From Candidatus Omnitrophota bacterium (GTDB lineage: Bacteria; Omnitrophota; Gorgyraeia; Gygaellales; Profunditerraquicolaceae), in the NCBI GenBank assembly GCA_963805065.1, contig CAWDSS010000016.1:1084-65083 (forward strand): DNA of 64,000 nucleotides. The letters run 5' to 3'. The first letter of the stretch is position 1. Each line of letters starts with the position of its first letter. Shown here in pieces: positions 36,431 to 62,385 of the stretch. The notes under the pieces are model-generated. The model saw only the letters and a program-made list of their open reading frames with translations, was not told the DNA's origin and searched no databases. Position numbers and translations under genes: made by a program.

Positions 36431-36485
36431 GGGGACGTTTCTATTTTTAACGTCTCCTAGTTAGCAGAAAAATAGAAACGTCCCC
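36431..36485 (+). repeat. conserved palindromic intergenic element, copy 1 (after pgk); probable intrinsic terminator
   Basis: GGGGACGTTTCTATTTTT - loop AACGTCTCCTAGTTAGCAG - AAAAATAGAAACGTCCCC, followed by a T-run. Confidence 0.8.
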
Positions 36486-36497
36486 TATTTTTTAAAT

Positions 36498-37271
36498 ATG
36501 AGAAAGACAATAATTGCCGGAAACTGGAAGATGTATAAGACTATTAATGAGGCCATAGAATTGGCAAATGGCCTTAAGAGAGAATTTTTTAAGCTGGATT
36601 ACGAGAAATTAGAGGTTGTATTATGTCCTCCGTTTACAGCGCTAAGCGAAGTTTACGAGGTGATATCGGAATCAGATATCCAATTGGGTGCCCAGGATGC
36701 TTACTGGCAGGATGAAGGCGCATTTACAGGAGAAATTTCTTGCAAGATGCTTAAGGATGCCGGATGCGAATTTGTAATTATCGGGCATTCCGAGCGCAGG
36801 CAATTTTTCGCTGAAACAAACGAATCCGTAAACAAGAAAATTAAAGCTGTGTTAAATAACGGACTGACTCCTATTATGTGCATTGGCGAGACATTAGCAG
36901 AAAGAGAAAAGGGTGAGACCTTTAAAGTTTTGGATGATCACCTGCTAAACGGGCTAAAGGGAATAAGCGAACAGGATATGCTAAATTTAGTCATTGCCTA
37001 TGAGCCGGTATGGGCAATAGGGACAGGTAAAACCGCCACTCCCCAGCAAGCACAGGAAGCGCATAAATACATTCGCGGATTATTAAAAAAAGAGTATAAT
37101 GATGATGTTGCGAAAGACGTGAGAATTCAATACGGCGGAAGCGTTAAGCCGGAAAATATCACTGAGTTAATGAAACAGCCTGATATTGACGGTGCGCTCG
37201 TAGGCGGAGCAAGCCTTCAGGTTGAATCGTTTAGCCAGATTGTTAAAAAAGCAAGCGAGGTTGTAAAATGA
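36498..37271 (+). CDS. tpiA: triosephosphate isomerase
   Basis: IAGNWKM, IIGHSERR, AYEPVWAIGTG, GGASL motifs. Confidence 0.95.
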   Translation: MRKTIIAGNWKMYKTINEAIELANGLKREFFKLDYEKLEVVLCPPFTALSEVYEVISESDIQLGAQDAYWQDEGAFTGEISCKMLKDAGCEFVIIGHSERRQFFAETNESVNKKIKAVLNNGLTPIMCIGETLAEREKGETFKVLDDHLLNGLKGISEQDMLNLVIAYEPVWAIGTGKTATPQQAQEAHKYIRGLLKKEYNDDVAKDVRIQYGGSVKPENITELMKQPDIDGALVGGASLQVESFSQIVKKASEVVK

Positions 37272-37663
37272 TGACTTTTATAATTCTTATTCATGTAGTA
37301 GTTTGTTTTGTGCTTATTACATTAGTTTTGATTCAAAGAGGCAGGGGTAGCGGCCTGGTAGAAAGTTTCCAGGGTGTAGAATCAATGTTTGGCACAAAAA
37401 CCAATGCCTTTCTTACGCGCACAACCACCGTGCTTTCAATCCTGTTCTTTATTACCTGTTTAAGCCTGGCTGTTTTATCTGTAAGGCAGAGTAGGTCCTT
37501 ACTAAGCAATGTCAGGAGTGAATCCAAGCCGATAAAACTATTGCCTGTTAGTACCGGGCAACCGCCTGTTCAGGCACAGCAGCCACAAGCGAAAACCGCC
37601 ATTCCTGCGGCACAAAATGCTCCTTTACAACAACTACCACAGGAAACCAAAAAAGCTCAATAA
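37268..37663 (+). CDS. secG: preprotein translocase subunit SecG with long Q/P-rich C-terminal tail
   Basis: two TM helices, LIQRGRGSGL...FG motif; conserved tpiA-secG adjacency; ATGA overlap. Confidence 0.75.
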   Translation: MMTFIILIHVVVCFVLITLVLIQRGRGSGLVESFQGVESMFGTKTNAFLTRTTTVLSILFFITCLSLAVLSVRQSRSLLSNVRSESKPIKLLPVSTGQPPVQAQQPQAKTAIPAAQNAPLQQLPQETKKAQ

Positions 37664-37682
37664 TGCTAGAATTTAGCGACAT

Positions 37683-37717
37683 CTAGAAAAGCTGCCAATG
37701 AAATTGGCAGCTTTTCT
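37683..37717 (+). terminator. intrinsic terminator after secG
   Basis: 16-bp stem TAGAAAAGCTGCCAAT / ATTGGCAGCTTTTCTA, GAA loop, T-rich tail. Confidence 0.75.
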
Positions 37718-37726
37718 ATTATTCCT

Positions 37727-38878
37727 ATGAATAAAAAATTATTCTGGATTTATGCCTTAAGCAGCGCCGTATATTTTACCCAAGGCATAGAAGGTCTTCC
37801 TTCCCAGGGCCTGTTTTATTATTGGAAAGAAACACTGGGTTTCTCTGCGGATAAGATAATGTATATCAGCAGTATTACTATTTCTGCCTGGCTGGTAAAA
37901 CCCATTCTCGGCTATGTTATAGATAACTTTTTTAACAAAAGAATCTGGATATTCATCTCCCTGGGGCTTGATATAGTCTTGGTATCTATTTTAGGATTGG
38001 TTAACCTGCCAATGGCTATTCTTGTGACTTTTTTAGTAGCAAATTCAACTGATGCGGCATTCCGGGATGTGGCAGTTGACGGAATCATGTGCGTAGAAGG
38101 AAAGAAAAATCAAACAACCGGTAAAATTCAAAGTGTTCAATGGATTTCTATTTACGTGGCAGGCTTGCTTACAGGCATAGGCGGAGGGGTTATCGCGGAA
38201 AAGTGGAATTATCGGGTTGGTTTCCTGCTGCTTATACCTGTTTATTTGCTTGTGAGTATTACCGCCTATCTTTATAAGGAAGAGCTTGTTTATCGTGACC
38301 GCAAAAACTCCAGCCTGTCAGCCGATTTAAAGAAAATATTTGCCGATAAGAGATTGCTTATCGTGGCATTGTTTATTTTTCTCTATAAATATTCGCCTTC
38401 TTTTGGCACGCCGCTTTTCTTTGTGCAAAGAGATACCTTTAAATGGGGTAAAATCTGGATCGGGATCCTTGGCACAATCAGCACGGTTTTCGGGATAATC
38501 GGCTCTATGCTTTATTACAAATTCAGCACCAGGATTAATATAAAAAAGTGGCTGTTTCTTAGCGTATTTTTAGGCGCTGTAACCACCTTAAGTTACCTTT
38601 ATTATACTCCTGTGAGCGCTGTGGTTTATGAAGTAATTTATAGCGTTATCGGCATGTTTATTTTCATCATGGTTATGGATTTTATGGCCAGGAAAACGCC
38701 TAAGGGTTTTGAAGCTACTTCTTTTGCATTCTTGTGCAGCATAAGTAACCTGGCTTTGGTAACCAGCAATATTTCAGGCGCATTTTTATTTCCCAAAATA
38801 GGCTTAAGCTGGCTGATAATAATCTCCGCGCTGACCAGTTTCTTATGCCTGCCATTGATTAACAAGATACATGAATAA
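37727..38878 (+). CDS. MFS-type transporter (folate-biopterin-transporter-like by recollection)
   Basis: about 12 TM segments; N-terminal YFTQGIEGLP pattern. Confidence 0.55.
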   Translation: MNKKLFWIYALSSAVYFTQGIEGLPSQGLFYYWKETLGFSADKIMYISSITISAWLVKPILGYVIDNFFNKRIWIFISLGLDIVLVSILGLVNLPMAILVTFLVANSTDAAFRDVAVDGIMCVEGKKNQTTGKIQSVQWISIYVAGLLTGIGGGVIAEKWNYRVGFLLLIPVYLLVSITAYLYKEELVYRDRKNSSLSADLKKIFADKRLLIVALFIFLYKYSPSFGTPLFFVQRDTFKWGKIWIGILGTISTVFGIIGSMLYYKFSTRINIKKWLFLSVFLGAVTTLSYLYYTPVSAVVYEVIYSVIGMFIFIMVMDFMARKTPKGFEATSFAFLCSISNLALVTSNISGAFLFPKIGLSWLIIISALTSFLCLPLINKIHE

Positions 38879-38920
38879 AATAATTGCAACTTTAGCCACA
38901 GTTGTATATAATATAACGTC

Positions 38921-39520
38921 ATGTTAGAGATACTCCAACCATATATACTTACCTTTATCCCGATATTCGTGGCTGTGGATGCCATCGGCAACATCCCTTT
39001 GTTTATAGGGCTGGTAGAGGGGATGAATAAGAAGCAAAGGCACAAGGCTATCGTGGATTCTGTAACTACTGCCACGGCTGTGGCAGTCTTATTCGTATTT
39101 ATAGGTAAGGCAATATTAAGGTTTATAGGAATTACTATTCCGGATTTCCAGATTGCAGGAGGCATACTTTTATTTGTAATATCAGTCAGGCTTCTTTTGC
39201 CAGGCACTTCCAAGGCAATGTTAGCCAATGGCCACGATAAAGACGTGGGGGTTTTCCCACTTGGAACTCCTTTAATCACAGGCCCGGCTGTATTAACTAC
39301 GACTTTAATGATGCTGGATAGCTATGGTGTAGCTGCCACTTTCGTATCTTTGGCCTTAAACATGATTATCGTGTGGCTGACGCTTTACAAGGCAGATTTT
39401 ATCTTAAGGCTTATGGGCGCCAACGGCACGCGCGCGTTTTCCAAGATAATGTATATACTGTTAGCAGCCATAGGCGTTATGGTAGTCAGGCGGGGTATTG
39501 CAGGAGTATTACTAAGATGA
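38921..39520 (+). CDS. MarC-family (UPF0056) integral membrane protein
   Basis: FIPIFVAVDAIGNIPLFIGL N-terminus and 6-TM layout typical of the MarC family. Confidence 0.75.
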   Translation: MLEILQPYILTFIPIFVAVDAIGNIPLFIGLVEGMNKKQRHKAIVDSVTTATAVAVLFVFIGKAILRFIGITIPDFQIAGGILLFVISVRLLLPGTSKAMLANGHDKDVGVFPLGTPLITGPAVLTTTLMMLDSYGVAATFVSLALNMIIVWLTLYKADFILRLMGANGTRAFSKIMYILLAAIGVMVVRRGIAGVLLR

Positions 39521-40743
39521 TGAAGCAGGTTTTGACATTTATTATGGCAGGAGGAAAGGGAGAGCGTCTTTATCCTTTAACTAAGGATAGGACGAAGCCG
39601 GCTGTGCCATTTGGCGGCATATACAGGATTATTGATTTTACGCTGAGTAATTGTATTAATTCGGGTCTACGTAAAATTTACCTGCTTACGCAGTATAAGT
39701 CCGCATCTTTACAAAAGCATATCCGTTTAGGCTGGAATATCCTGCCTTCAGAGTTAGCCCAATTTATTGAAATCCTTCCCGCACAGCAAAGAATCGGTGA
39801 TTCCTGGTATTTGGGGACTGCAGACGCCATATTTCAGAATCTTTACACGTTGGAAATTGACCTTCCTGATGAAGTGCTGATTTTGGCAGGCGACCATGTG
39901 TATAAGATGAATTATTATTCCATGATAGATTTTCATCGCGAGCTGGATGCTGATTTAACCGTAGGGGTAGTTGAGGTTGATAAGGACAAGGCAAGCCATT
40001 TGGGTATTGTGGAAGTTGACGATAGCGGCATGGTGCAGGGATTCCAGGAAAAGCCCATGAAGCCAAAAGTAATACCTACAAATCCGGATAAGGTATTTGC
40101 CTCCATGGGAATTTACAATTTTAAACGCTCGATTCTTGAGCAGGAATTACATGAGGATGCCAAGAAACATAATTCAACGCATGATTTCGGCAAAGACATT
40201 ATCCCTCAAATGCTTAAGAAAGGATTAAAAATAGCCGCCTACAACTTTATTGATGAGAATAGGAAACAGGCAAAATATTGGCGCGACATAGGAACCATTG
40301 AAGCCTATTATGAGGCAAATATGGACTTGGTGCAGGTTAATCCCACGTTTAACCTTTACGATAAAGATTGGCCTATAAGGACTTTTCAGGAGCAGTTTCC
40401 ACCTGTGAAAACAGTTTTTGCCGGGGAAGAAATGCCAGGCAGGGTGGGCCTGGTGCTTGATTCGGTTATTTCCAACGGCTGCATTGTGAGCGGCGGGAGA
40501 GTGCAGCGCTCAATACTTTCTCCCAATGTAAGGATTAACAGCTATTCTGAAGTCTATGATTCTATCCTTATGGAAGGCGTAAACGTGGGAAGGCATGCCA
40601 AAATAAAAAGAGCGATAATTGATAAAGATGTAGTTATCCCTTCAGGTATGGTTATCGGGTATGATTTAGAAGAGGACAAGAAGCATTTTAGTGTCAGTGA
40701 ATCCGGTATTGTAGTGGTGGCAAAGAGGACAGAAATAAAGTAA
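39517..40743 (+). CDS. glgC: glucose-1-phosphate adenylyltransferase
   Basis: start at ATG 39517 (ATGA overlap with marC stop); MAGGKGERLYPLT, FGGIYRIIDF, WYLGTADA, C-terminal left-handed beta-helix repeats. Confidence 0.9.
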   Translation: MMKQVLTFIMAGGKGERLYPLTKDRTKPAVPFGGIYRIIDFTLSNCINSGLRKIYLLTQYKSASLQKHIRLGWNILPSELAQFIEILPAQQRIGDSWYLGTADAIFQNLYTLEIDLPDEVLILAGDHVYKMNYYSMIDFHRELDADLTVGVVEVDKDKASHLGIVEVDDSGMVQGFQEKPMKPKVIPTNPDKVFASMGIYNFKRSILEQELHEDAKKHNSTHDFGKDIIPQMLKKGLKIAAYNFIDENRKQAKYWRDIGTIEAYYEANMDLVQVNPTFNLYDKDWPIRTFQEQFPPVKTVFAGEEMPGRVGLVLDSVISNGCIVSGGRVQRSILSPNVRINSYSEVYDSILMEGVNVGRHAKIKRAIIDKDVVIPSGMVIGYDLEEDKKHFSVSESGIVVVAKRTEIK

Positions 40744-40773
40744 AAAGTTAAAAGCCAAAAGTTAAAAGTTAAA

Positions 40774-41241
40774 ATGGAAAATCAAAATATTAGAAAAGCA
40801 AAGATACAAGATATCAAGCAAATCCAAAGTTTAATAAACTATTTTGCCGATAAAGACCTCATGCTGCCCAGGTCTTTGAACGAATTGTACGAAAATCTGC
40901 GGGATTTCTGGGTATATGAAGAAAATAAAAAAATCCTGGGTTGCGCTGCGTTACATATCTCTTGGGAAAATTTAGCGGAGATAAAGTCTTTGGCAGTGCA
41001 AACAGGCATACAAAATAGAGGGATTGGCCAAGATTTAATTTCTATATGCATAAGAGAAGCAAAAGAATTGGGAGCCAAGAGAGTATTTGTCCTTACCTAC
41101 CATTTTAAATACTTTCGTAAATTAGGCTTTAAACGGGTGAACCACGCGGACCTGCCACATAAAATTTGGGCAGAATGCATTAATTGTCCCAAATTCCCCA
41201 ATTGCCAGGAAGTCGCCTTGATAAAAAATATAGCCAGATAA
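40774..41241 (+). CDS. GNAT-family N-acetyltransferase (ArgA C-terminal-domain-like)
   Basis: IQNRGIGQDL acetyl-CoA-binding (Q/R-x-x-G-x-G/A) motif, about 155 aa. Confidence 0.75.
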   Translation: MENQNIRKAKIQDIKQIQSLINYFADKDLMLPRSLNELYENLRDFWVYEENKKILGCAALHISWENLAEIKSLAVQTGIQNRGIGQDLISICIREAKELGAKRVFVLTYHFKYFRKLGFKRVNHADLPHKIWAECINCPKFPNCQEVALIKNIAR

Positions 41242-41246
41242 AGAAT

Positions 41247-41273
41247 GGGGACAGGAAAAATAGAACCGTCCCC
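41247..41273 (+). repeat. partial (right-half-like) copy of the palindromic element, after the GNAT gene
   Basis: GGGGACAGGAAAAATAGAACCGTCCCC: matches GAAAAATAGAAACGTCCCC of the full copies with 1 mismatch; short GGGGAC/GTCCCC stem. Confidence 0.55.
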
Positions 41274-41291
41274 GTAGTAAGGGAGGAATAA

Positions 41292-42443
41292 ATGGATTAT
41301 TTACTGACTGATGAACAAAAAATGATTAAGGAACTGGCTCATAAGATCGCCGAAGAAAAAATCCGGCCGGTGGCTGCCAAGTATGACCAGACGGAAGAAT
41401 ATCCATGGGAGATTATTAAGATTATTGCTGATGCAGGGCTTTTCGGCTTATTTATACCGGAAGAGTACGGCGGGATGAGCGTAGGTGTTTTAAACTTATG
41501 CCTTGCTACGGAAGAATTATCGCGCGCCTGCGGCGGTATTGCTGTTTGTTATGCAGCTTCTGCTTTAGGAACGTTCCCAATAGTGTTATTTGGCAATGAC
41601 CAGCAAAAGAAAAAATACCTGCCGGCTTTAGCCAGCGGTAAAAAAGTCGCTGCTTTTGCTATTACTGAACCGGAAGCGGGATCCGATGCATCTGCAATTA
41701 AGACCACGGCAAAAAAGGAAGGGGATTATTATATTTTAAACGGCCTTAAACATTTTATAACCAACGGCGGTGACGCAGAAACTTATGTAGTTATTGCCAT
41801 GACAGATAAAACAAAAGGCGCAAGAGGCGCCTCCGCATTTATCCTGGAAAAAGGTACCCCAGGGTTTACTTTCGGCAAAAAAGAGGATAAGTTTGGCATC
41901 CGTGCCTCCTCGACCAGTGAATTAGTATTCACGGATTGTAAAATACCCAAAGAAAACCTGCTTGCCAAAGAAGGCATGGGTTTTATCGTTACCATGAGGA
42001 CATTTGATATGTCCAGGCCTGGAGTTGCTACGCAGGCTTTAGGGATAGCGCAAGGCGCGCTGGAATTAGCAGTAAAATACGCCAAAGAAAGGCATCAGTT
42101 CGGAAAATCGATTTCCACTTTCCAGGGAATACAATGGATGCTTGCTGACATGGCTACGGAAATCGAAGCTGCCAGGGGCCTGGTTTATTCAACCGCAAGA
42201 ATGGTTGATGCTGGGATTAAGGATGTTGCCAAAGAGTCAGCCATGGCAAAGATGTTTGCATCGGATGTGGCAATGAAAGTCACAGTGGATGCGCTCCAGA
42301 TATTCGGCGGCTATGGTTACATGAGAGATTATCCTATTGAAAAATACGTAAGAGATGCTAAGATTACACAAATTTACGAAGGGACAAACCAGATTCAGCG
42401 CAATATCATTGCTTTACAGTTAATAAAAGAAATGGCCAAGTAA
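41292..42443 (+). CDS. acyl-CoA dehydrogenase (short-chain/butyryl-CoA dehydrogenase-like)
   Basis: TEPEAGSDA, catalytic-base region YEGTNQIQ, size 383 aa; followed by etfBA. Confidence 0.9.
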   Translation: MDYLLTDEQKMIKELAHKIAEEKIRPVAAKYDQTEEYPWEIIKIIADAGLFGLFIPEEYGGMSVGVLNLCLATEELSRACGGIAVCYAASALGTFPIVLFGNDQQKKKYLPALASGKKVAAFAITEPEAGSDASAIKTTAKKEGDYYILNGLKHFITNGGDAETYVVIAMTDKTKGARGASAFILEKGTPGFTFGKKEDKFGIRASSTSELVFTDCKIPKENLLAKEGMGFIVTMRTFDMSRPGVATQALGIAQGALELAVKYAKERHQFGKSISTFQGIQWMLADMATEIEAARGLVYSTARMVDAGIKDVAKESAMAKMFASDVAMKVTVDALQIFGGYGYMRDYPIEKYVRDAKITQIYEGTNQIQRNIIALQLIKEMAK

Positions 42444-42553
42444 AGTAAAAAGGAAAAAGCCAAAAGTAAAAAGTAAAGGAAAAAGCCAAAAGTAAAAAGT
42501 AAAGGAAAAAGCCAAAAGTAAAAACTTTTACCTTTTTGCTTTTAACTTTTGAG
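42444..42553 (+). repeat. tandem array (about 2.9 x 26 nt, AGGAAAAAGCCAAAAGTAAAAAGTAA) followed by an imperfect inverted copy; A-rich word family
   Basis: units at 42451-42476, 42477-42502 and 42503-42525; inverted TTTTACCTTTTTGCTTTTAACTTTT at 42526-42550. Confidence 0.8.
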
Positions 42554-42559
42554 TAATCG

Positions 42560-43110
42560 TTCAGCAACCCTCGGGCTTCAGCCCGAGGAAGAATGAACGA
42601 CGAAGCGAAGCCAGTTTCAACTGGCGGAGCGAAGAAAGTTATGGCATAATCTGGCTATGCCCAGATATTGGAAGGGAAAACATACAAAGCACAAGCTCCA
42701 ATACCATTTGGTATGGGTGCCTAAATATCGTAAGAGGGTATTGCGAGGCAAAATAGCCTATCGTTTACGAGGGTTATTGTATGAAGGCTGTAGGATAAAC
42801 CGATGGTGGATAGGCAAGATAAGCGTACAGTACGATCATGTGCATGCGTTGATACAGCTTAATCCAAGTGATAGTGTTGCTGAAGTAGTCAAGATATTAA
42901 AAGGCGGAACAAGCAGGGTAATCCGCAAAGAATTTCCAGAGCTGCAAGAGTTTTTATGGGGAAATAGTTTTTGGGCAGATGGTTATTTTGCCGAGTCGGT
43001 TGGTCAAGTTGATGAAGAAGTTGTCAGAAAGTACATCGATGAGCAACGAAAATAGCCAGATTATGCCAGAAGCAAGAAACCTCGGGCTTTAGCCCGAGGA
43101 GTATTCATTT
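42560..43110 (+). mobile_element. IS200-type (IS200/IS605 family, tnpA only) insertion sequence; ends approximate
   Basis: tnpA flanked by near-identical hairpins CCTCGGGCTTCAGCCCGAGG (42569-42588) and CCTCGGGCTTTAGCCCGAGG (43080-43099) and by inverted 14-mers GGCATAATCTGGCT (42643-42656) / AGCCAGATTATGCC (43054-43067). Confidence 0.65.
42657..43055 (+). CDS. tnpA: IS200/IS605-family Y1 (HUH) transposase TnpA
   Basis: 132 aa; YHLVWVPKYRK, HUH motif (DHVHALI), C-terminal catalytic Tyr region (RKYIDEQ). Confidence 0.9.
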   Translation: MPRYWKGKHTKHKLQYHLVWVPKYRKRVLRGKIAYRLRGLLYEGCRINRWWIGKISVQYDHVHALIQLNPSDSVAEVVKILKGGTSRVIRKEFPELQEFLWGNSFWADGYFAESVGQVDEEVVRKYIDEQRK

Positions 43111-43116
43111 TAAAAT

Positions 43117-43899
43117 ATGAACATAATCGTCTGCATAAAACAAGTCCCCGAGACAACGGAAGTTAGGATCAACCCCGAGACGAATACTCTGATACGCGAA
43201 GGAGTCGAGTCTATTATCAATCCCTTTGATATGTATGCCATAGAAGAATCAATTCGGCTTAAGGAAAAATGCGGCGGTAAAATCACTGTGATTACCATGG
43301 GCCCTCCGCAGGCAGATGCTGCTTTAAGAGAAGCAATTTCCCTGGGAGCTGATGAGGGCATACTTATTTGCGACAGGGCATTTGCCGGAAGCGATACCTG
43401 GGCAACCAGCTATACATTATCAGGCGCGATAAAGAAAATCGGCCAATTTGATTTAATCATCTGCGGCAAACAGGCATCTGATGGAGACACAGCACAGGTG
43501 GGGCCAGGTATCTCAACGCATTTAGACATTCCTCAGGTCACTTATGTTAAAAAAATTGAAGAGGTAAAAGATAAAACCCTGCGCGTAGAGCGTATGATGG
43601 AAGAAGGTTTTGAAATTATTGAAACCCCCCTACCAGCCCTGCTTACTGTTGTCAAAGAAATTAATGAGCCGAGGCTGCCTTCTTTAAAAGGAATGATGCG
43701 CGCAAAGTCGGCAAAGATTCAAATCTGGTCTCAAAAAGAATTGGATCTCGATAGTCAAAGAATCGGCTTATGCGGTTCGCCTACGCAGGTAGTGAAAATA
43801 TTTACTCCGCCGCAACGAAGCGGAGGACAAATGCTTAAGGGAGAAATCCCTGAGATTGCAGCTAAACTTGTGGATTTAATCAAGGACGAGGTACATTAA
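43117..43899 (+). CDS. etfB: electron transfer flavoprotein beta subunit
   Basis: MNIIVCIKQVPE..INPFD..AIEEA-type N-terminus, 260 aa. Confidence 0.9.
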   Translation: MNIIVCIKQVPETTEVRINPETNTLIREGVESIINPFDMYAIEESIRLKEKCGGKITVITMGPPQADAALREAISLGADEGILICDRAFAGSDTWATSYTLSGAIKKIGQFDLIICGKQASDGDTAQVGPGISTHLDIPQVTYVKKIEEVKDKTLRVERMMEEGFEIIETPLPALLTVVKEINEPRLPSLKGMMRAKSAKIQIWSQKELDLDSQRIGLCGSPTQVVKIFTPPQRSGGQMLKGEIPEIAAKLVDLIKDEVH

Positions 43900-43901
43900 T
43901 C

Positions 43902-45104
43902 ATGCCTATTCAAATAATTTCCGAAAAATGCACTGGTTGCACATTATGTATTAAATCCTGCCCATTTTCAGCTATCCAGATGATAAATAAAAAAGCTGTG
44001 ATTGACTTAAATAAATGTAATCTTTGCGGCGCCTGCGTCCCCACATGTAAATTCAAGGCGATATTGCTGGAAAAACAGGCATCAGCCTGCGTAACGCCGG
44101 ATATCAAGGATTATAAAGGCGTATGGGTTTTTATCGAGCAGAAGAACAACAAGGTGCAATCTGTTTCCTATGAACTCTTAGGGAAAGCGCAGGATTTAGG
44201 AAAGAAGTTAAATTGCCAGGTAAGCGGAGTTTTAATAGGAAATAATTTAGATGACCAATTAGATGAATTAATTTGGCGCGGAGCAGATAATATTTATCTA
44301 GTAGAGGCGCCTGAGTTGGCTAATTTTCAGGATGAGCCTTACACCAATATTTTAGTAAAATTAATCCAGAAATATAAACCTGAGATTTTTCTCGCCGGAG
44401 CAACCTCGATAGGCAGATCCCTGGTTTCAAGAGTGGCAATTACAGTGCGTTGCGGCTTGACCGCAGACTGCACCGGGCTGGATATTGACCCGGCAAAAAA
44501 GATTCTTTTACAAACCCGGCCTGCATTTGGCGGAAATATTATGGCTACGATTATTTCTCCCAACCACCGGCCGCAAATGGCGACAGTCCGCCATAAAGTA
44601 ATGCAGCCCATGGATTCGGATAAACAGAGAAAAGGAAAAATCATCAGGGATAATTTTGACGGTAATTTGTATAACTCCCGCACAAAACTTTTGGATATCG
44701 TAGAAGAAATAGAATCACTGGTCAATCTTGCCGAGGCAGACATTATCGTATCCGGTGGCCGGGGAATGGGAGGACCCGAGAATTTTAAAATCATAGAAGA
44801 ACTTGCCCATGTATTGGGTGCGGCAGTAGGAGCTTCGCGTGCTGCAGTAGATTCCGGATGGAAGCCTTATTCGCATCAGGTGGGGCAAACCGGAAGGACC
44901 GTTGCACCTAAAATATATATTGCCTGCGGCATTTCCGGGCAAATTCAGCATCTCGTAGGAATGCAATCCTCAAAAATTATTATCGCCATCAACAAAGACC
45001 CCGATGCCCCTATATTTAAGGTATCTACATACGGTATAGTGGGAGACCTTTTCCAGGTAGTCCCTGCCTTAACCAAAAGATTCAAGGAAGTTCTCTCTTC
45101 TTAG
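43902..45104 (+). CDS. etfA: electron transfer flavoprotein alpha subunit with N-terminal 2x[4Fe-4S] ferredoxin domain
   Basis: CTGCTLCIKSCP and CNLCGACVPTC motifs, then EtfA core (SGGRGMG, YIACGISGQIQH). Confidence 0.9.
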   Translation: MPIQIISEKCTGCTLCIKSCPFSAIQMINKKAVIDLNKCNLCGACVPTCKFKAILLEKQASACVTPDIKDYKGVWVFIEQKNNKVQSVSYELLGKAQDLGKKLNCQVSGVLIGNNLDDQLDELIWRGADNIYLVEAPELANFQDEPYTNILVKLIQKYKPEIFLAGATSIGRSLVSRVAITVRCGLTADCTGLDIDPAKKILLQTRPAFGGNIMATIISPNHRPQMATVRHKVMQPMDSDKQRKGKIIRDNFDGNLYNSRTKLLDIVEEIESLVNLAEADIIVSGGRGMGGPENFKIIEELAHVLGAAVGASRAAVDSGWKPYSHQVGQTGRTVAPKIYIACGISGQIQHLVGMQSSKIIIAINKDPDAPIFKVSTYGIVGDLFQVVPALTKRFKEVLSS

Positions 45105-45176
45105 CATACCTTATCATCTTTAAGCAACATAATAATCCTATATGTATGTATATGTCAAAGAATGTAAAGATTTTCC

Positions 45177-45205: not shown

Positions 45206-45227
45206 CAAACCATATTTTGGAGAAAAT

Positions 45228-45404: not shown

Positions 45405-45418
45405 AAGGAGAGTTGATT

Positions 45419-48652: not shown

Positions 48653-48660
48653 AAACAAGT

Positions 48661-52571: not shown

Positions 52572-52632
52572 TTCATAAATATAATTCCTAATGTCTAAAT
52601 CCTGATGTCTAATAAATGCCTAATTCTAAAAT

Positions 52633-52693
52633 AAAGGGGACGTTTCTATTTTTAACGTCTCCTAATCAGAAGAAAAATAGAAACGTCCCCTTT
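52633..52693 (+). repeat. conserved palindromic intergenic element, copy 2 (after htrA); probable intrinsic terminator
   Basis: AAAGGGGACGTTTCTATTTTT - AACGTCTCCTAATCAGAAG - AAAAATAGAAACGTCCCCTTT. Confidence 0.8.
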
Positions 52694-52703
52694 ATTATTA
52701 AAA

Positions 52704-55783: not shown

Positions 55784-57006
55784 AGATAATCCGTTCAGGA
55801 AGCAAAAAATTAGAGAAGATTTATAACCGAGGGATTACCAAGCAGAGGCGCGTTGAGGAGAAAGTTGAGAAAATCATTGAAGACGTACGCATGCTGGGGG
55901 ATGAGGCACTGTTAAAATATACCAAGAAATTTGACGGAGTTAAATTATCGCTGCGGCAGTTAAAAGTTGCAGAAATAGAAATCAGCGGAGCGTACCAGAA
56001 TATCAGCCCTAATTTTGTTTCTACTCTTAAGGTTATCATTGAAAACGTAAACAGGTTTTATAAAAAGACCATCAGAAAATCCTGGAGAATAAAGGATGCA
56101 GATGGCGTAGTTTTAGGAGAGAATTATACCCCTCTTGATAGGGTGGGAATATACATACCTGCCGGGACAGCCCCCTTGGTTTCTACTGTATATATGACGG
56201 TATTGCCTGCTAAGATAGCCGGAGTTAAAAAAATCGCTTTAATCAGCCCGCCTGATAAACACGGTTTTATTAATCCGCATATTCTGGTTGTGGCGGATCT
56301 TTTGAAAGTGGATGAAATTTACCGCGTCGGCGGTGCACAGGGCATAGCTGCCCTAGCTTACGGCACAAAAACCATCCCTAAGGTCGATAAGATTGTGGGG
56401 CCGGGAAATATTTATGTCAGCGAAGCCAAGAGGCAGGTGTTTGGCCAGGTAGGCATAGATATGATTGCCGGGCCTACGGAGCTGGTGATTATCGCTAATC
56501 GTCACAGCGACCCCAGATTTATTATTGCTGATTTAAAGGCACAGTCAGAACATGCCAAGGGTTTAGCCATATTAATTACAAATTCTAAAGCCATAGCTAA
56601 AGAAGTGAAATCGCAGCTGGATGGCAGTAATGGTTTTATCATTTTGACTAAGAACCTTGATCAGGCAGTAGAAATTGCCAATAAAATTGCTCCTGAGCAT
56701 TTAGAAATTTTGGTTAATAATCCGCAAAGGCTGCTTAGAGGCATACGTAATGCCGGGGCAATATTTTTAGGGCCTTTTAGCCCAACTGCAGTGGGAGATT
56801 ATGTTGCCGGGCCAAGCCATGTGCTCCCCACTCAGGGCACTGCAAGGTTCTTTTCAGGGTTATCGGTGCTGGATTTTATGAAAAGTAATCACATCATCAG
56901 TTATTCCAAGAAAGCCCTGGAGAAAGCAAAAGACCCGCTGGAAAAAATCGCAGGCATAGAAGGCTTAAGTAAACATTTAGATTCTGTCAAAGTGAGATTT
57001 GGGTAG
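55780..57006 (+). CDS. hisD: histidinol dehydrogenase
   Basis: canonical HisD motifs (IDMIAGPTE, QSEH, APEHLE, GDY.AGPSHVLPT). Confidence 0.93.
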   Translation: MKIIRSGSKKLEKIYNRGITKQRRVEEKVEKIIEDVRMLGDEALLKYTKKFDGVKLSLRQLKVAEIEISGAYQNISPNFVSTLKVIIENVNRFYKKTIRKSWRIKDADGVVLGENYTPLDRVGIYIPAGTAPLVSTVYMTVLPAKIAGVKKIALISPPDKHGFINPHILVVADLLKVDEIYRVGGAQGIAALAYGTKTIPKVDKIVGPGNIYVSEAKRQVFGQVGIDMIAGPTELVIIANRHSDPRFIIADLKAQSEHAKGLAILITNSKAIAKEVKSQLDGSNGFIILTKNLDQAVEIANKIAPEHLEILVNNPQRLLRGIRNAGAIFLGPFSPTAVGDYVAGPSHVLPTQGTARFFSGLSVLDFMKSNHIISYSKKALEKAKDPLEKIAGIEGLSKHLDSVKVRFG

Positions 57007-57052
57007 TGGCTATGAGTTTTAAGTATAAACTAATATAAAAAGTGAGAGAAAG

Positions 57053-57661
57053 ATGAATTCAAGAATATTTGAAAATACTCGTAAGACAAATGAAACAGAA
57101 ATATTAATTAAATTAAATATCGATGGTACCGATCAAAGAAGAATAAATACTGGCATAGGCATTCTTGATCATATGCTGGATTTATTTGCTTATTGGGGGC
57201 ATTTTGATTTAGAAATAAATGTTAAGAAAGGCGATTTTAATATAGATATTCACCATACTAATGAAGATGTTGGTATATTTTTGGGTAAGGCTTTCAAAGA
57301 AGCATTAGGAGATAAAGCTGGTATTCAGAGAAATGGTTTCGCTTCATTTCCTATGGAAAACGTAACTGCCAATGTGACCGTGGATATTAGCGGCAGAGGT
57401 TCTTTTTCTTGGCCTTTATATGGCGCTGGATTTAACCCAGATAACAAAGAAGGATATGAAATTGAATATGCTGAGCATTTTTTAGAAGCATTTAGCAAAA
57501 ACTTAGGCATGAATCTAACCATAACTATCACTGGGACTAGTCTGGATTTGCATACAACTTTAGAGCCCATCTTTAAAGCCTTAGGAAAAGCTTTGGACCA
57601 GGCCACGCAAATTGACCCTCGCAGAAAAGGCGTTCCTTCAACTAAGGGTATAATAGACTAA
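57053..57661 (+). CDS. hisB: imidazoleglycerol-phosphate dehydratase
   Basis: RKTNETEI.I.LN.DG, GI..LDHML, HHTNED motifs. Confidence 0.93.
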   Translation: MNSRIFENTRKTNETEILIKLNIDGTDQRRINTGIGILDHMLDLFAYWGHFDLEINVKKGDFNIDIHHTNEDVGIFLGKAFKEALGDKAGIQRNGFASFPMENVTANVTVDISGRGSFSWPLYGAGFNPDNKEGYEIEYAEHFLEAFSKNLGMNLTITITGTSLDLHTTLEPIFKALGKALDQATQIDPRRKGVPSTKGIID

Positions 57662-57662
57662 G

Positions 57663-58295
57663 ATGATTGCGATTATTGATTACGGCATGGGAAACATTCA
57701 CAGCGTTAACAAGGCTTTGCAGCTGTTTGGCGCAAAGACTTTGGTTACCAGTAATCCAAAAGATATTCAATCAGCACAAAAAGCGGTTTTGCCCGGAGTG
57801 GGAGCTTTTGACGATGCTATGTTGGAATTGGAAAAACAGGGCCTAGTCAGCGTTATCAGGGATTTCGTGAAAGCCCAAAGGCCAATTTTAGGAATTTGTC
57901 TGGGTATGCAGCTTTTGTTTGATAAAAGCCAGGAAGCAGCCAAAACTAAAGGTCTGGGTATTTTAAAAGGCGAAGTCAAGAGGTTTGAAGCCAATAAGGG
58001 GATTAAAGTGCCTCACATGGGCTGGAACCAGTTAAAAAAAGTTAAAAGTAAAAAGCCAAAAGGAAAAAGTGAGTGTCCTTTGTTAAAAGATATACCCGAT
58101 AATTCATTTGTATATTTTTGCCACTCGTATTATCCTGTGCCTAAAGATAAGGATGTTGCGGCTGCAACAACTGAATACGGGTTGGAGTTTGCTTCGGTTG
58201 TCTGGAAGGATAATGTTTATGGCGTGCAGTTCCATCCGGAGAAAAGCCAAAACATCGGTTTAAAGATGATAGATAATTTTGTAAATTCATGCTAA
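57663..58295 (+). CDS. hisH: imidazole glycerol phosphate synthase, glutamine amidotransferase subunit, with Lys-rich insert
   Basis: LPGVGAF, GICLGMQLL (catalytic Cys), PHMGWN, GVQFHPEKS motifs. Confidence 0.92.
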   Translation: MIAIIDYGMGNIHSVNKALQLFGAKTLVTSNPKDIQSAQKAVLPGVGAFDDAMLELEKQGLVSVIRDFVKAQRPILGICLGMQLLFDKSQEAAKTKGLGILKGEVKRFEANKGIKVPHMGWNQLKKVKSKKPKGKSECPLLKDIPDNSFVYFCHSYYPVPKDKDVAAATTEYGLEFASVVWKDNVYGVQFHPEKSQNIGLKMIDNFVNSC

Positions 58296-59011
58296 TCATT
58301 CCGGCTATAGATTTACAGGACGGCTGTGTCGTAAGATTTGTCCAGGGCAAGCTCGACAAGAGAATTTATTCCCGCGATCCGTTAAAGACTGCAAAGCACT
58401 GGATTAAGCAAGGTGCCAAATTACTACACATTGTTGATTTAGACGGCGCAATTACGGGAGAGCCGAAGAATATCGGGATTGCCAAAGAAATTGCCCTTAA
58501 CGTAGATATTCCCGTGCAATTCGGAGGAGGGGTAAGAAAAATAGAAACCATAAAAACGCTTCTTGATGATTACAAATTCAAGCGGGTGGTTTTAGGCACT
58601 AAGGCAGTGTTGGATAATGCATTCTTGAAAAAGGCCTTTAAAGAATTTAAAGATAAAGTTATCGTTAGTATTGATGCTAAGCAGGAAACTGTTTTAACCA
58701 AGGGATGGAGGAGTGCGAGAAGCGGGCTAAGCGTGCTTGATTTTGCACTCGTTTTAAAAGGCTTAGGGATAAAGCAGGTAATTTATACCGATACATTAAA
58801 AGACGGGACTTTATCCGGGCCAAACATAAAAGGAATAAAATCTTTGCTTAAAAATACAGGCTTAAAAATCATAGCTTCAGGAGGTATTTCATCGCTTGAC
58901 GACATATTTAAACTCAAGAAATTAGAAAAAGACGGCGTATCCGGTGTTATTATAGGTAAGGCCTTGTATGAAGGGAAATTTACTCTGGCAGAGGCCATAA
59001 AACTAGCATAG
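58289..59011 (+). CDS. hisA: 1-(5-phosphoribosyl)-5-[(5-phosphoribosylamino)methylideneamino]imidazole-4-carboxamide isomerase
   Basis: IIPAIDL.DG..VR, HIVDLDGA, ASGGISS motifs. Confidence 0.92.
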   Translation: MLIIPAIDLQDGCVVRFVQGKLDKRIYSRDPLKTAKHWIKQGAKLLHIVDLDGAITGEPKNIGIAKEIALNVDIPVQFGGGVRKIETIKTLLDDYKFKRVVLGTKAVLDNAFLKKAFKEFKDKVIVSIDAKQETVLTKGWRSARSGLSVLDFALVLKGLGIKQVIYTDTLKDGTLSGPNIKGIKSLLKNTGLKIIASGGISSLDDIFKLKKLEKDGVSGVIIGKALYEGKFTLAEAIKLA

Positions 59012-59026
59012 AATAGGAGGAGGAAA

Positions 59027-59479
59027 ATGTTTAAGAAGGCAGTAATTTTGGGTCTAGCAATGTTTTTTATTATTTCCTTGAGCGGTTGCGCAACTGCACG
59101 CAAACAAAATGAACTTGAGATTCAGGGATTGAAAAATCAAATTTCTGTTTTGGAATCACAGGTGCAGTCCAAGGATGAGGAAATTAACAGCTTAAAAGAA
59201 CAATTAGCAAAGGCACCCGAAGTAAAAGAACAACCAGAGCAGGCGGTAGCTAAAAAGAGAATTGTCTATCCGGTAAAATCAAGGCCCAACATCCGCCAGG
59301 TCCAGATTGCCTTAAAGAATGCAGGTTTTGACCCTGGCTCTATTGACGGAAAAATGGGCAATCAGACCAGGATAGCAATTAAATCGTTTCAAAAAGCGCA
59401 TGATTTGCCCGCAAACGGAAAAATGGGTAGAAAAACCTGGGATTTATTAAGGGAATATTTGTATAAGAAGTTAAAATAG
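59027..59479 (+). CDS. lipoprotein with coiled-coil linker and C-terminal peptidoglycan-binding (PG_binding_1-like) domain
   Basis: signal peptide with lipobox LSGC; IRQVQIALKNAGFDPGSIDGKMGNQTRIAIKSFQKAHDLPANG pattern. Confidence 0.7.
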   Translation: MFKKAVILGLAMFFIISLSGCATARKQNELEIQGLKNQISVLESQVQSKDEEINSLKEQLAKAPEVKEQPEQAVAKKRIVYPVKSRPNIRQVQIALKNAGFDPGSIDGKMGNQTRIAIKSFQKAHDLPANGKMGRKTWDLLREYLYKKLK

Positions 59480-59484
59480 GAACA

Positions 59485-59522
59485 AGCTTTCAGCTTTCAG
59501 ATAGAGCTGACGGCTGACGGCT
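59485..59522 (+). repeat. imperfect hairpin built from tandem heptamers (AGCTTTC x2 / CTGACGG x2.7) between the lipoprotein gene and hisF
   Basis: 16 stem positions: 12 Watson-Crick, 2 G-U, 2 mismatches; no T-run. Confidence 0.4.
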
Positions 59523-59533
59523 GACAGCGGAGC

Positions 59534-60289
59534 ATGTTGACTAAGCGCATAATTCCCTGTTTGGATATTAAAGACGGCAGGGTAGTAAAGGGTGTCAAAT
59601 TCTTGGGGCTCAAAGACGCAGGCGACCCCGTGGAAGTAGCTAAAATTTACGACGAGCAGGAAGCGGATGAGCTTGTATTTTTGGACATTACTGCCAGTTT
59701 CCAGAAACGAAAGACCTTAATTGATTTAGTGGAAGAAATAGCCCGGAATATATTTATGCCTTTTACTGTCGGAGGAGGCATCCAGGATTTAAGCGATATC
59801 AAAGATATTTTAAACGCAGGAGCGGAAAAGGTGTCCCTTAATACTGCTGCGGTAAGATTCCCGGAGTTGATTAAGGATGCAGCCGTTAAATTCGGCAGCC
59901 AGTGCATTGTAGTAGCTATAGACGCAAAAAAAGAAGATGGCAGCTGGAAGGTTTATATTAACGGCGGCAGGACGCCTATGGATTTAGAGGCTGTAAGCTG
60001 GGCTAAGCAGGCGGCAAAGCTTGGGGCAGGAGAGATACTCTTGACCAGTATGGATTATGACGGCACTAAAGATGGTTTCGATATACCGTTAACCAAGGCA
60101 ATTTGTGATGCGGTAAGCATCCCTGTTATTGCCTCCGGTGGCGCAGGCAAACTTGAACATTTTTATGATTGCTTAACGAAGACAAGCGCCGATGCTTGTT
60201 TAGCCGCGTCTATTTTTCACTACCAGGAATATTCCATAAAACAAGTAAAAGAGTATTTAAAGCAAAAGGGGATACCGGTAAGGCTATGA
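59534..60289 (+). CDS. hisF: imidazole glycerol phosphate synthase, cyclase subunit
   Basis: [34 protein letters not shown] motifs. Confidence 0.95.
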
Positions 60290-60624
60290 AAAAATTTAAA
60301 TTTAATTTAAAAGATTTGAAATTTGACAAAAAAGGCCTGTTGCCGGCCGTAATTCAGGACTATAAAACAGGCAAGGTGCTTATGCTGGCTTATATGAATC
60401 AGGAGTCGCTACGCAGGACCATAAAGTTGGGTAAAACCTGTTTTTGGTCGCGTTCAAGAAAAGAGTATTGGATTAAGGGCGCAACTTCCGGTAATTTTCA
60501 GTTTGTTAAACTTATAGCTTATGATTGCGATATGGATGCGCTTTTGATTAAAGTAAGGCAAGTGGGAGTTGCCTGTCATACGGGGAACAGGTCATGTTTT
60601 TATAGAACAATTAATGACAAATGA
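60286..60624 (+). CDS. hisI: phosphoribosyl-AMP cyclohydrolase (HisI domain only)
   Basis: start at ATG 60286 (ATGA overlap with hisF stop); [23 protein letters not shown]...G.ACHTG..SCF motifs. Confidence 0.9.
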
Positions 60625-60634
60625 CAAAACCCAA

Positions 60635-60701
60635 AGAAAAGGGGACGTTTCTATTTTTAACGTTTCCTAATCAGAAGAAAAATAGAAACGTCCCCTTTTC
60701 T
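60635..60701 (+). repeat. conserved palindromic intergenic element, copy 3 (after hisI); probable intrinsic terminator
   Basis: 24-bp stem AGAAAAGGGGACGTTTCTATTTTT / AAAAATAGAAACGTCCCCTTTTCT, loop AACGTTTCCTAATCAGAAG. Confidence 0.8.
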
Positions 60702-60777
60702 TCACATTAAATAACTCAAAAGGCAAAATGCAAAACGCAAAACTGCAACGCAAAACGTAAAACGTTTTGAGCTTACT

Positions 60778-62262
60778 ATGTACGAACCTTCATTAAAAGA
60801 ATTCTTAAGATTAAGCAATAAGGGGAACCTCATCCCGGTATACAAAGAGATAAACGCTGACCTGGATACTCCGGTATCCGCCTTTTTAAAAATAAATAAA
60901 GGTAAGTTTTCTTTTTTGCTGGAATCCGTGGAAGGCCGGGAGAAAATCGCCAGGTTTTCCTTTTTAGGCAGTAATCCCTCCATGGTATTTAAGAGCCAAA
61001 ACAAAAATATTCAGATAATTTATCCCCGGCAAAAACGCATTAAGAAATTCATAACCAAGGCTTCCCCTTTGGATGAAATCAAGAATATCATGGAGGGTTA
61101 TAGGGCAGTGGAAGTTGTGGGCCTGCCGAGGTTTATCGGCGGCTTGGTGGGATACATGGGGTATGATACGGTGAGGTTCTTTGAGGACATCCCGGATAAG
61201 AATCCGCAGGATCTCACGCTACCGGATTGTATTTTCATGTTAACAGACAATATCCTGGTTTTCGACCATGTTAATCATACCATAAAGATTGTGGCAAACG
61301 TAATGCTGCCTAAGATTGGCAGAATTTCTTCAGCCCAAAAAACAAAGTTATACAAGCATGCGCTAAGGCAAATTGATGCGATAGAGAACGGAATCCAAAG
61401 GCCTTATTTTTCAAGGCCAAAGGTTTTGACGCATAGGACATTGAAGATCTCCTCAAACTTTACAAAAAGAGGGTTTGAGAATATCGTCAAGAAAGCCAAG
61501 CGGTACATACAACAAGGCGACATTATCCAGGTAGTTTTGTCACAGCGTTTTAATCTTAAAATAGATAAAAAGCCTTTTGAAATTTACCGAAACCTGCGCA
61601 GCCTCAATCCTTCTCCTTACATGTATTTTTTGGCTTTCGATGATGCGTTTATCATCGGCTCTTCTCCTGAAATGCTGGTGCGCTGCGAAGAGGGGATTGT
61701 CCAGACCAGGCCCATTGCAGGAACAAGGCCCAGAGGCAAAACAGAAGAAGAAGATAGCAAATTCGAGGCAGAGCTTCTTGTTGATAAAAAAGAAAGAGCG
61801 GAACATCTTATGCTTGTAGACCTGGGAAGAAATGATTTGGGCAGGGTTTGTCTTTCGGGAAAGGTAGGAGTCAAGGAATTTATGAAGGTAGAAAAATATT
61901 CCCATGTTATGCATTTGGTAAGCGAAGTAATAGGAAAACTTGACAATAGACGTTTCGACATATATGATGTATTGCGTTCTTGTTTTCCTGCAGGCACGGT
62001 TTCCGGCAGCCCTAAGATCCGCGCCATGGAAATCATCGACGAATTGGAAAATATAAGGCGCGGGCCCTATGCGGGGTGCGTGGGATATTTCAGTTTTTCT
62101 CACAATATCGATACCTGTATAACCATAAGGACAATCGTGGTAAAAAATAATACGGCTTATGTCCAGGCAGGAGCCGGCATTGTTGCAGATTCAGTCCCCC
62201 GGAAAGAATATGCCGAGTCAGTTAATAAGGCAAGGGCATTAATTGAGGCGATTATTAAGTAG
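60778..62262 (+). CDS. trpE: anthranilate synthase component I
   Basis: LIPVY.E...D..TPVSAFLK, FLLESVEG, GTRPRG, PAGTVSGAPK-like (PAGTVSGSPK), GAGIVADS motifs. Confidence 0.9.
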   Translation: MYEPSLKEFLRLSNKGNLIPVYKEINADLDTPVSAFLKINKGKFSFLLESVEGREKIARFSFLGSNPSMVFKSQNKNIQIIYPRQKRIKKFITKASPLDEIKNIMEGYRAVEVVGLPRFIGGLVGYMGYDTVRFFEDIPDKNPQDLTLPDCIFMLTDNILVFDHVNHTIKIVANVMLPKIGRISSAQKTKLYKHALRQIDAIENGIQRPYFSRPKVLTHRTLKISSNFTKRGFENIVKKAKRYIQQGDIIQVVLSQRFNLKIDKKPFEIYRNLRSLNPSPYMYFLAFDDAFIIGSSPEMLVRCEEGIVQTRPIAGTRPRGKTEEEDSKFEAELLVDKKERAEHLMLVDLGRNDLGRVCLSGKVGVKEFMKVEKYSHVMHLVSEVIGKLDNRRFDIYDVLRSCFPAGTVSGSPKIRAMEIIDELENIRRGPYAGCVGYFSFSHNIDTCITIRTIVVKNNTAYVQAGAGIVADSVPRKEYAESVNKARALIEAIIK

Positions 62263-62310
62263 TGTAATGTGTAAAGTGTAATGTGTAATGCCAGTGTAAC
62301 GCAAAATAAA

Positions 62311-62385
62311 GTAAAGAAAAGGGGACGTTTCTATTTTTAACGTTTCCTAATTAGAAGAAAAATAGAAACGTCCCCTTTTCTTTAC
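62311..62385 (+). repeat. conserved palindromic intergenic element, copy 4 (after trpE); probable intrinsic terminator, nested in a longer inverted repeat
   Basis: 28-bp stem GTAAAGAAAAGGGGACGTTTCTATTTTT / complement, loop AACGTTTCCTAATTAGAAG. Confidence 0.8.

Follow-up and report, generated by a model that had tools for sequence, protein, structure and literature searches.

The window analysed here is the whole 64-kb stretch of contig CAWDSS010000016.1 from a Candidatus Omnitrophota bacterium, and its intergenic regions carry dispersed copies of a palindromic hairpin with the arm sequence GGGGACGTTTCTATTTTT. A search for this 18-mer and its complement (exact and with up to 3 mismatches) gave 9 arm matches, of which 8 were exact, compared with 0.11 ± 0.35 matches expected from dinucleotide shuffles; none of 100 shuffles reached 9. 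All nine arms are intergenic. The eight exact arms pair into four hairpins, each made of perfect 18-nt arms and a 19-nt loop, at a density of about one hairpin per 14 kb. These copies, a shortened one and a larger palindrome around the last of them are as follows.

36421..36497, + strand: copy 1, with its core at 36431-36485; the inserted unit fills the entire 77-nt spacer between pgk and tpiA.
41247..41273, + strand: shortened copy, with the left arm down to GGGGAC and the right arm, AAAAATAGAACCGTCCCC, at 41256-41273 with 1 mismatch.
52630..52696, + strand: copy 2, between an htrA-like gene and recX, with its core at 52636-52690, perfect 24-nt arms and the loop AACGTCTCCTAATCAGAAG.
60634..60702, + strand: copy 3, in the hisI/trpE spacer, with its core at 60641-60695, perfect 25-nt arms and the loop AACGTTTCCTAATCAGAAG.
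62311..62385, + strand: copy 4, in the trpE/rpsP spacer, with its core at 62321-62375, perfect 28-nt arms and the loop AACGTTTCCTAATTAGAAG.
62262..62417, no strand assigned: outer palindrome around copy 4, in which GTGTAAT-type heptamers at 62262-62288 are mirrored by their complement at 62391-62417.

The neighbouring genes were confirmed by Pfam as PGK/TIM, HtrA-like/RecX, HisI/TrpE and TrpE/S16. Copies 1-4 sit 10, 64, 16 and 58 nt past the stop codons of PGK, the HtrA-like protease, HisI and TrpE, respectively, all of these genes being on the + strand. A first-pass annotation of the window had described this arrangement, and the arm counts bear out its four full copies with identical 18-bp stems. 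Its coordinates stand in part: the cores are slightly narrower than it gave, but its wider ends are real, because the palindromes of copies 2-4 run past 18 bp with differing A-rich/T-rich sequence, which yields the longer perfect arms listed above. The half-copy that it had placed at 41247-41273 is also real, and this copy still folds into a short hairpin 18 nt 5′ of the start codon of an acyl-CoA dehydrogenase gene.

Copy 1 has the loop AACGTCTCCTAGTTAGCAG and 18-bp arms, and is bordered by A-rich sequence on its 5′ side and by T-rich sequence on its 3′ side. Among the four copies the loops vary at 4 of 19 positions and the stems at none of 36 (Fisher p ~0.011). As RNA, the units fold with free energies (dG) of -30 to -36 kcal/mol and z scores of -7 to -9.5 against shuffles. 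The arms of the outer palindrome around copy 4 are 27 nt long and 89% complementary, and all 156 nt fold into a single long hairpin (dG -62.4 kcal/mol, z -13). It had been suggested that a repeat of the left arm in the loop would allow two alternative folds; the full 18-28 bp stem is found in the minimum free energy and centroid structures of all copies, and pairing between loop and arm is absent. The four copies, and a related copy at another locus (L044), are oriented like the flanking + strand genes, and GC skew is positive across the window. This shared orientation fits strand-specific insertion and is inseparable from a transcriptional effect.

Searches of the window for known features gave no Rfam matches at gathering thresholds and no tRNA or tmRNA genes with ARAGORN, and a terminator scan of the window did not report these hairpins. 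A full-text literature search with the arm sequence returned unrelated primers only, and one for "Omnitrophota" with "palindromic" returned nothing relevant. A likeness of GGGGACG/CGTCYCC to the acceptor stem of tmRNA or tRNA-Ala (G3:U70) was dropped as coincidence. Readings as sigma-54 or sigma-32 promoters, attC, dif or CRISPR were discarded by inspection, since key consensus positions are missing.

The same arms are present in many other genomes. An exact scan for the 18-mer in one genome per species (GTDB representatives) gave at least 107 stretches, and full hairpins occurred in at least 35 species-level genomes, Omnitrophota, Aminicenantes and Terriglobales among them. The metagenome-assembled genomes (MAGs) with full hairpins comprise about 24 Omnitrophota, 4 "Planctomycetales", 5 Aminicenantes, 1 "Eubacteriales" and 1 Terriglobales, the hairpin of the "Eubacteriales" MAG looking like those of Aminicenantes, and single arms were found in further phyla. 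Most of the stretches hold the same hairpin with an unrelated loop sequence, the mode of loop length being 17-22 nt. Where one arm was exact, its partner had 0, 1 or 2 mismatches in 62, 31 and 17 cases (110 of 114), and arm changes cluster at positions 8, 9, 13 and 18. Together with its A-tract the arm can be written as (A)n-GGGGACGTTTCTATTTTT, and as AAAA-GGGGACGNTTCTATTT (18-22 nt) it is nearly unchanged across Omnitrophota, Acidobacteriota (Aminicenantes and Terriglobales) and other phyla, in genomes of 38-67% GC.

The nearly invariant loop noted in the first-pass annotation is not supported as a trait of the family, since it holds within this genome only; across genomes the loops are unrelated and the stems constant. 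Loops form families inside a genome (the nearest to the window's loop is AACGTTCCTGATTTAGCAG in L044), and several dimers per genome occur in CAZRVK, JBDRLN, CAWECI, JAUYBI and others. The stems are thus the constant and the loops the drifting component, and the loop families proper to each genome indicate that whole units are copied within genomes. The recurrence of the stems with drifting loops also disfavours ordinary convergent terminators as the origin of the hairpins. There were no exact arms in the viral contigs of IMG/VR, and thus no sign of phage carriage.

Across 91 hairpins, A accounts for about 70% of positions -6 to -1 on the 5′ side, and T for 65-80% of positions +1 to +7 on the 3′ side. 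T-runs adjoin 65 of the 91 hairpins on the + strand and 55 on the - strand, with 48 having them on both. The repeats that flank the transposase gene described below start with AAAA too, which makes the A/T tracts a component of the repeat. Compensatory changes affect arm position 8 (GC 4, CG 1) as well as the pairs between the flanks, with AU/UA counts of 43/21 for the first of these, and none of 500 shuffles attained the covariation score obtained by pair counting. By crude open reading frame (ORF) calling, 64 of the hairpins fall between genes and 23 touch the ends of ORFs, with a median of 11.5 nt to the 3′ end of a gene.

All ORFs of the at least 107 loci were clustered to find gene families adjacent to the arms. 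A single non-housekeeping family adjoins them, in four genomes (loci L018, L028, L045 and L089), and the clustering revealed no other conserved partner gene at these loci. Its product is a transposase of 220 aa that matches Pfam Y1_Tnp (E = 1e-19). Among NCBIfam models, that for REP-associated tyrosine transposase scores highest (74.6 bits, against 25.5 bits for the IS200 model), and the best match in the PDB is 4ER8, E. coli TnpA-REP (E = 6e-9). In L045 there are three tandem arms in front of the gene and a hairpin across its stop codon; the repeat that flanks the gene there is the C8 variant, which makes up 8 of the 9 arms of the locus. In L018 a hairpin lies 65 nt 5′ of the transposase ATG, and in L028 and L089 arms flank decayed copies of the gene. 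Homologues numbered 1880 in a protein search, and nearly all of them occur on 1-5 contigs.

For the reverse test, 26 homologues were aligned (A1), and with this alignment 80 metagenomic loci were retrieved on the protein sequence only. Nearly all of the closer homologues (about 42% identity or more) had a + arm 50-100 nt 5′ of the ATG and a - arm 0-30 nt past the stop codon. The closest homologues with arms as terminal inverted repeats (TIRs) lie among L108-L187; L192 has exact arms and a protein 47% identical to the L045 enzyme, and L188 has the C8 variant. Most of the other, more distant loci carry related inverted repeats (GGGGAC.../GGGGTCA...), for example GGGGACGGTTCTCTTT, GGGGACGGTTCTCTTTAATTGACA, GGGGTCAACTCTATTTTT, GGTGTCAACTCTG, GGGGACGTTCCCC and GGGGACAGCGCCC. 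Protein identity averages 50.0% within a repeat type and 40.9% between types, a gap reached in none of 1000 permutations; repeat type co-varies with transposase lineage. The REP/MITE-like propagating element and the protein-recognised site that the first-pass annotation had considered are thereby supported together: in relatives the arms are the TIRs of a Y1/HUH transposase gene of the REP-associated tyrosine transposase (RAYT) type, and they would be sites that the enzyme recognises.

The A1 proteins (215-232 aa) share the motifs N59 H60 x H62, W99 Q100, Y120 I E122 L N124 P125 and S140 S141. Compared with Table 1 of PMC6006769, these motifs suggest that the enzyme belongs to RAYT Group 1, or TnpAY1 subclass 2.1, which is the TIRYT/TIRtron class. 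At most loci a conserved RGRPKK tail precedes the stop codon, which the right repeat overlaps or adjoins, and in L045 (4270-4313) it is the right-hand hairpin that encodes the C-terminal residues GDASIYENENK. A conserved block, GTTAGATT-N~15-CGTCTATT-N~8-GGAGG-ATG, lies 50-55 nt 5′ of the transposase ATG in L018 (7520-7575), L111, L124, L133, L134, L153, L165, L171 and others, and is common to genes just 40-50% identical. RNAalifold found no consensus structure in this region 5′ of the ATG, and by its spacing the block resembles a -35/-10 promoter followed by a very short leader, and not a structured leader. In other transposase lineages TTGACA is fused to the inner end of the repeat instead.

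The loops of the hairpins contain 15 AGATT/TTAGA words (5.2 expected), corresponding to the GTTAGATT box that is conserved immediately inward of the left repeat in full elements. Such a match is expected if the miniature units are internal-deletion derivatives. An origin of the loop from a ACGTCTATTA box 5′ of the transposase ATG was also considered and found weak (6 matches to a pattern search, about 3 expected), the relation to the GTTAGATT box being better supported.

Orthologous sites reveal that copies come and go. Window genes are 63-79% identical in nucleotide sequence to those of the Omnitrophota MAG loci L078, L098 and L035, which places the window in an Omnitrophota bacterium. At the pgk/tpiA junction, L078 has the arrangement stop-C-ATG, with 1 nt between the genes, and the window has 77 nt; the window spacer consists of the element and its A/T flanks, and shows no target duplication relative to the empty L078 site. 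Conversely, L078 has a copy 5′ of pgk where the window has none, and L098 has a full copy in the spacer orthologous to that of the window's shortened copy. L124 holds two complete transposase-bearing units that are 94% identical and 3 kb apart, which indicates that the full unit also duplicates. Two Aminicenantes species have an orthologous copy in common. At one orthologous site, L070 has the GGGGACGTTTCTATTTTT type and L081 a different variant holding a nested GGGGACAC hairpin: at 7645-7725 of L081, the loop of the variant GGGACGGTTCTGAATTT encloses a second complete hairpin, AAAGTGTCCCC-TTAAC-GGGGACACTTT.

The window's pgk itself (35249-36420, 1172 nt from start to stop) has a frame broken at about 35490-35500. 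Residues 3-92 and 85-393 of the L078 orthologue align to it in two frames; the gene is either frameshifted or misassembled in an A/T run.

The arms are the terminal repeats of a transposase gene, copies have been gained and lost, and the stems are constrained. We therefore consider it very probable that the hairpins derive, as miniature non-autonomous units, from a small autonomous element that encodes a Y1/HUH transposase. The autonomous element would be about 0.8-0.9 kb long and consist of an inverted repeat, a promoter, the Y1/HUH tyrosine transposase gene and a second inverted repeat. A miniature copy would retain the two 18-28 nt TIRs with only about 17-22 nt of interior, and would consequently fold back on itself. 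By analogy with the TnpA of IS200/IS605 and the TnpA-REP of E. coli, a transposase whose gene lies elsewhere in the genome may bind the folded arms on single-stranded DNA, probably the lagging-strand template. As the biochemistry of IS608 and TnpA-REP suggests, its HUH/Tyr site would cleave at the foot of the stem, and the unit would be moved or copied strand-specifically without target duplication. An A-tract, a very stable stem and a T-tract would, as a side effect, have the shape of a bidirectional intrinsic terminator or an mRNA 3′-end stabiliser, and this shape may explain why copies are tolerated just past stop codons.

Several observations weigh against this interpretation. There is no transposase homologue in the 64-kb window (tblastn), and the linkage within its own genome is drawn from relatives. 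The NCBIfam score of 74.6 bits is just under the curated cut-off of 80. The comparison of empty and filled sites comes from genomes that are only about 75% identical (L078 pgk against that of the window), and the same orientation in 4 of 4 copies is without statistical significance. Finally, the arm is a single 18-mer without an internal palindrome, unlike classical REPs (repetitive extragenic palindromic sequences), and a 19-nt loop is atypical for intrinsic terminators.

One alternative is a role for the host. The hairpins might be a structured RNA or protein-binding site selected by the host (a small RNA, an mRNA stabiliser or a regulator's operator), the tie to the transposase being secondary. 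Arms far more conserved than the protein (type-A enzymes are 47.5% identical, with 16-18 nt in common), the persistence of orthologous copies between the two Aminicenantes species and the argument that RAYT systems are domesticated (PMC5581495) would all agree with such a role. However, the absence of Rfam matches, loops that are not conserved between genomes, the turnover of copies at orthologous sites and the lack of a conserved partner gene besides the transposase at the clustered loci make this origin very improbable. The A-tract, stem and T-tract do form a stable hairpin followed by a U-run at gene 3′ ends, and a terminator or mRNA-end activity is plausible from this shape. Nevertheless, the presence of one copy inside the normally contiguous pgk-tpiA pair, and the fact that the A/T tracts are part of the repeat, call for caution on a terminator role.

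Classical miniature inverted-repeat transposable elements (MITEs), moved by a DDE transposase with target-site duplication, also have terminal inverted repeats, small size, dispersed copies and insertion polymorphism, and the repeats of Tn3-like elements likewise start with GGGG. In the present hairpins, however, an A-rich left flank and a T-rich right flank complement each other instead of forming direct repeats, and the filled pgk/tpiA site lacks a target duplication. The sole gene repeatedly bracketed by the arms encodes a Y1/HUH enzyme, and a DDE_3 gene near L192 lies outside the arms. A Tn3-like MITE was rejected on the missing target duplication and the Y1 nature of the associated gene, and a DDE-driven origin in general is highly improbable.

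Ordinary Rho-independent terminators with convergent stems, selected for hairpin stability and involving nothing mobile, would account for copies just past stop codons and for stable stems followed by a T-run, so often on both strands. They would not account for eight identical 18-nt arms in the window though the loops differ, for the identical sequence in dozens of species of at least two phyla, for arms that are the terminal repeats of a transposase gene or for presence and absence at orthologous sites. In addition, loops of 17-22 nt are far above the typical size, and the terminator scan passed over the hairpins. As an origin, terminators are effectively refuted by the cross-species identity, the transposase TIRs and the presence/absence pattern, and we give them next to no weight.

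It is equally hard to credit that the 18-mer is a DNA uptake sequence (DUS) or uptake signal sequence (USS) of the Neisseria or Haemophilus type, read by a competence receptor and paired into terminators: although DUS/USS often form inverted pairs in terminators, the motif combines a GC core with an AT-rich tract, and uptake bias could in principle explain sharing between co-occurring phyla, 9 arms per 64 kb with none inside genes is a low density against the roughly one per kb, coding sequence included, that is typical of DUS/USS, the tie to the Y1 transposase is tight in both directions with repeat variants that co-vary with the protein, and loop families within genomes indicate that whole units are copied.

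Further repeats accompany the transposase-derived hairpins in the window and at the relatives' loci. Palindromes of a second family, (A)nGGGGACWGTCCCC-3 nt-GGGGACAGTCCCC(T)n, occur at 13491-13531 and 32897-32937 of the window and fit the motif GGGGWSAS, discussed below, exactly. The sequence GGGACAGTCCCC also flanks a transposase homologue in L131, and the window's genome probably has a second TIRYT lineage to which this palindrome family belongs as the repeat. Intergenic tandem 5-9-mers (AAAAGNN, GCAAAAC, GTGTAAT) lie at window positions 20568-20630, 28603-28651, 40712-40795, 42438-42550, 58034-58082, 60715-60763 and 62262-62288, and at 42516-42550 they make a hairpin of their own. The outer flanks of the TIRs in L117, L125, L129, L133, L143, L158 and L186 are likewise tandem short repeats. 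At many loci, stuttered "flank+GGG" units are found just outside the end of the repeat, e.g. GGGAAATT-GGGGGAAATT-GGGGACGG; it looks as if the end of the element had been partially re-copied several times.

Some transposase-bearing units have neighbours of other kinds. A Polbeta/HepT-like toxin-antitoxin pair adjoins the unit in L188 (1587-2310), and DDE_3 transposase and RHS/YD-repeat genes adjoin that in L192 (8068-9075). These neighbours suggest that some units reside in variable regions rich in mobile elements.

Derivation from a Y1 transposase element would give a conspicuous repeat of an uncultivated phylum its cause. It would also warn annotators that such "terminators" can be mobile insertions able to split operons, as in pgk-tpiA. 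The system would clearly exemplify a proliferating hairpin partner for Group 1 (subclass 2.1 or TIRYT), the largest of the RAYT groups and the one understood least. If this is true, it would be the first abundant population of REPIN-like units (REP doublets that form hairpins) tied to that group, which has been reported as lacking REP partners. The extreme conservation of the arms across phyla makes the pair of enzyme and hairpin an attractive, well-defined substrate for the biochemistry of the subclass.

Among known structures, bidirectional Rho-independent terminators share the A-tract, the GC-rich base of the stem, the T-tract and the position a few nt past stop codons. They differ in that the stem here is identical at unrelated loci and across species, and in that a 17-22 nt loop and an 18-28 bp stem are beyond their usual range. 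IS200/IS605 elements and their palindrome-associated miniatures have HUH/Y1 chemistry and DNA hairpins as recognition elements in common with the present system, and insertion without target duplication and with strand specificity is expected for both. However, the ends of IS200/IS605 are small, imperfect, subterminal hairpins, one set per end, whereas here terminal inverted repeats pair with each other. The tyrosine motif is Y---Q in those enzymes and Y---NP here (PMC6006769), in line with the low score of the IS200 model.

The REPIN-RAYT systems, reportedly described by Bertels and Rainey in 2011 and by Nunvar and colleagues in 2010, and the E. coli REP and bacterial interspersed mosaic elements (BIMEs) with TnpA-REP, said to have been characterised in 2012 by Ton-Hoang and colleagues and by Messing and colleagues (PDB 4ER8), are closer in organisation. 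They too are non-autonomous, hairpin-forming doublets of a short repeat, extragenic and mostly 3′ of genes, with a cognate Y1 gene flanked by inverted repeats and with co-evolution of repeat and enzyme. The organisation of a REPIN, namely two inverted repeats with a short spacer that fold into a hairpin, together with a flanked cognate RAYT gene, is present here. In contrast to classical REPs, the arms start with GGGG behind an A-tract and have no GTAG/GTGG (GT[AG]G) tetranucleotide, and the enzyme is of another subclass, only distantly matching 4ER8. The hairpins thus fall outside the definition of GTAG-type REPs as well as that of DDE MITEs. REPIN systems are described as lineage-specific, whereas the arms here are shared across phyla.

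The closest counterpart is the TIRtron. Di Nocera, De Gregorio and Rocco (2013) gave this name to RAYT-like genes within long TIRs, and called the enzymes TIRYT (PMC3733652). Many TIRtron repeats carry GGGGWSAS, and some form "moderately abundant" dispersed families as dimers (PMC3733652). Quentin et al. (2018) equated TIRYT with TnpAY1 subclass 2.1 and with Group 1 of Bertels' RAYT classification, characterised by NHVH as the HuH motif, W[EQ], YIELNP, an SS tail and a median length of about 238 aa, and found no REP-like repeats near its genes (PMC6006769). Bertels et al. (2017) described Group 1 as the largest RAYT group, widely distributed and only weakly linked to repeated 16-mers; signs of duplication and transfer are more numerous in it than in the other four groups clustering as RAYTs, and Group 6, which falls within IS200, scores higher (PMC5581495).

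The present system agrees with this class in its Y1/HUH gene of about 220-240 aa with NHVH, WQ, YIELNP and the SS tail, which lies between TIRs starting with GGGG(A/T)(C/G), the right one overlapping the gene 3′ end. It also agrees in its dispersed repeat copies, often head-to-head dimers (here 4 dimers and 1 shortened copy in the window), in the Acidobacteria-rich membership of the group and in some signs of duplication and horizontal transfer. The arm GGGGACGT matches GGGGWSAS at 7 of 8 positions, and the sister repeat types GGGGTCAG and GGGGACAG, the latter being the window's second palindrome, match it fully. There are differences: the hosts here, Omnitrophota and Aminicenantes, are outside the sampling of those studies, the dimers have a tight loop mode of 17-22 nt and A/T tracts, and about one hairpin per 14 kb compares with "moderately abundant" families (Di Nocera) or no REP-like repeats (Quentin). 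In addition, the same 18-mer persists here across phyla, and its transposase has diverged to below 50% identity. This might reflect either an unusually rigid code by which the enzymes of RAYT Group 1 (subclass 2.1) recognise DNA, or a function of the hairpin for the host, such as a portable bidirectional terminator or mRNA-end module spread by a domesticated transposase, although we regard such a reading as rather unlikely. The hairpins are TIR dimers of a TIRYT-type element and REPIN-like miniature derivatives of it. As bacterial selfish DNA they are of a known kind, met here in an uncultivated phylum, the Omnitrophota, and their one notable feature is the constancy of the arm across phyla compared with that of its enzyme.

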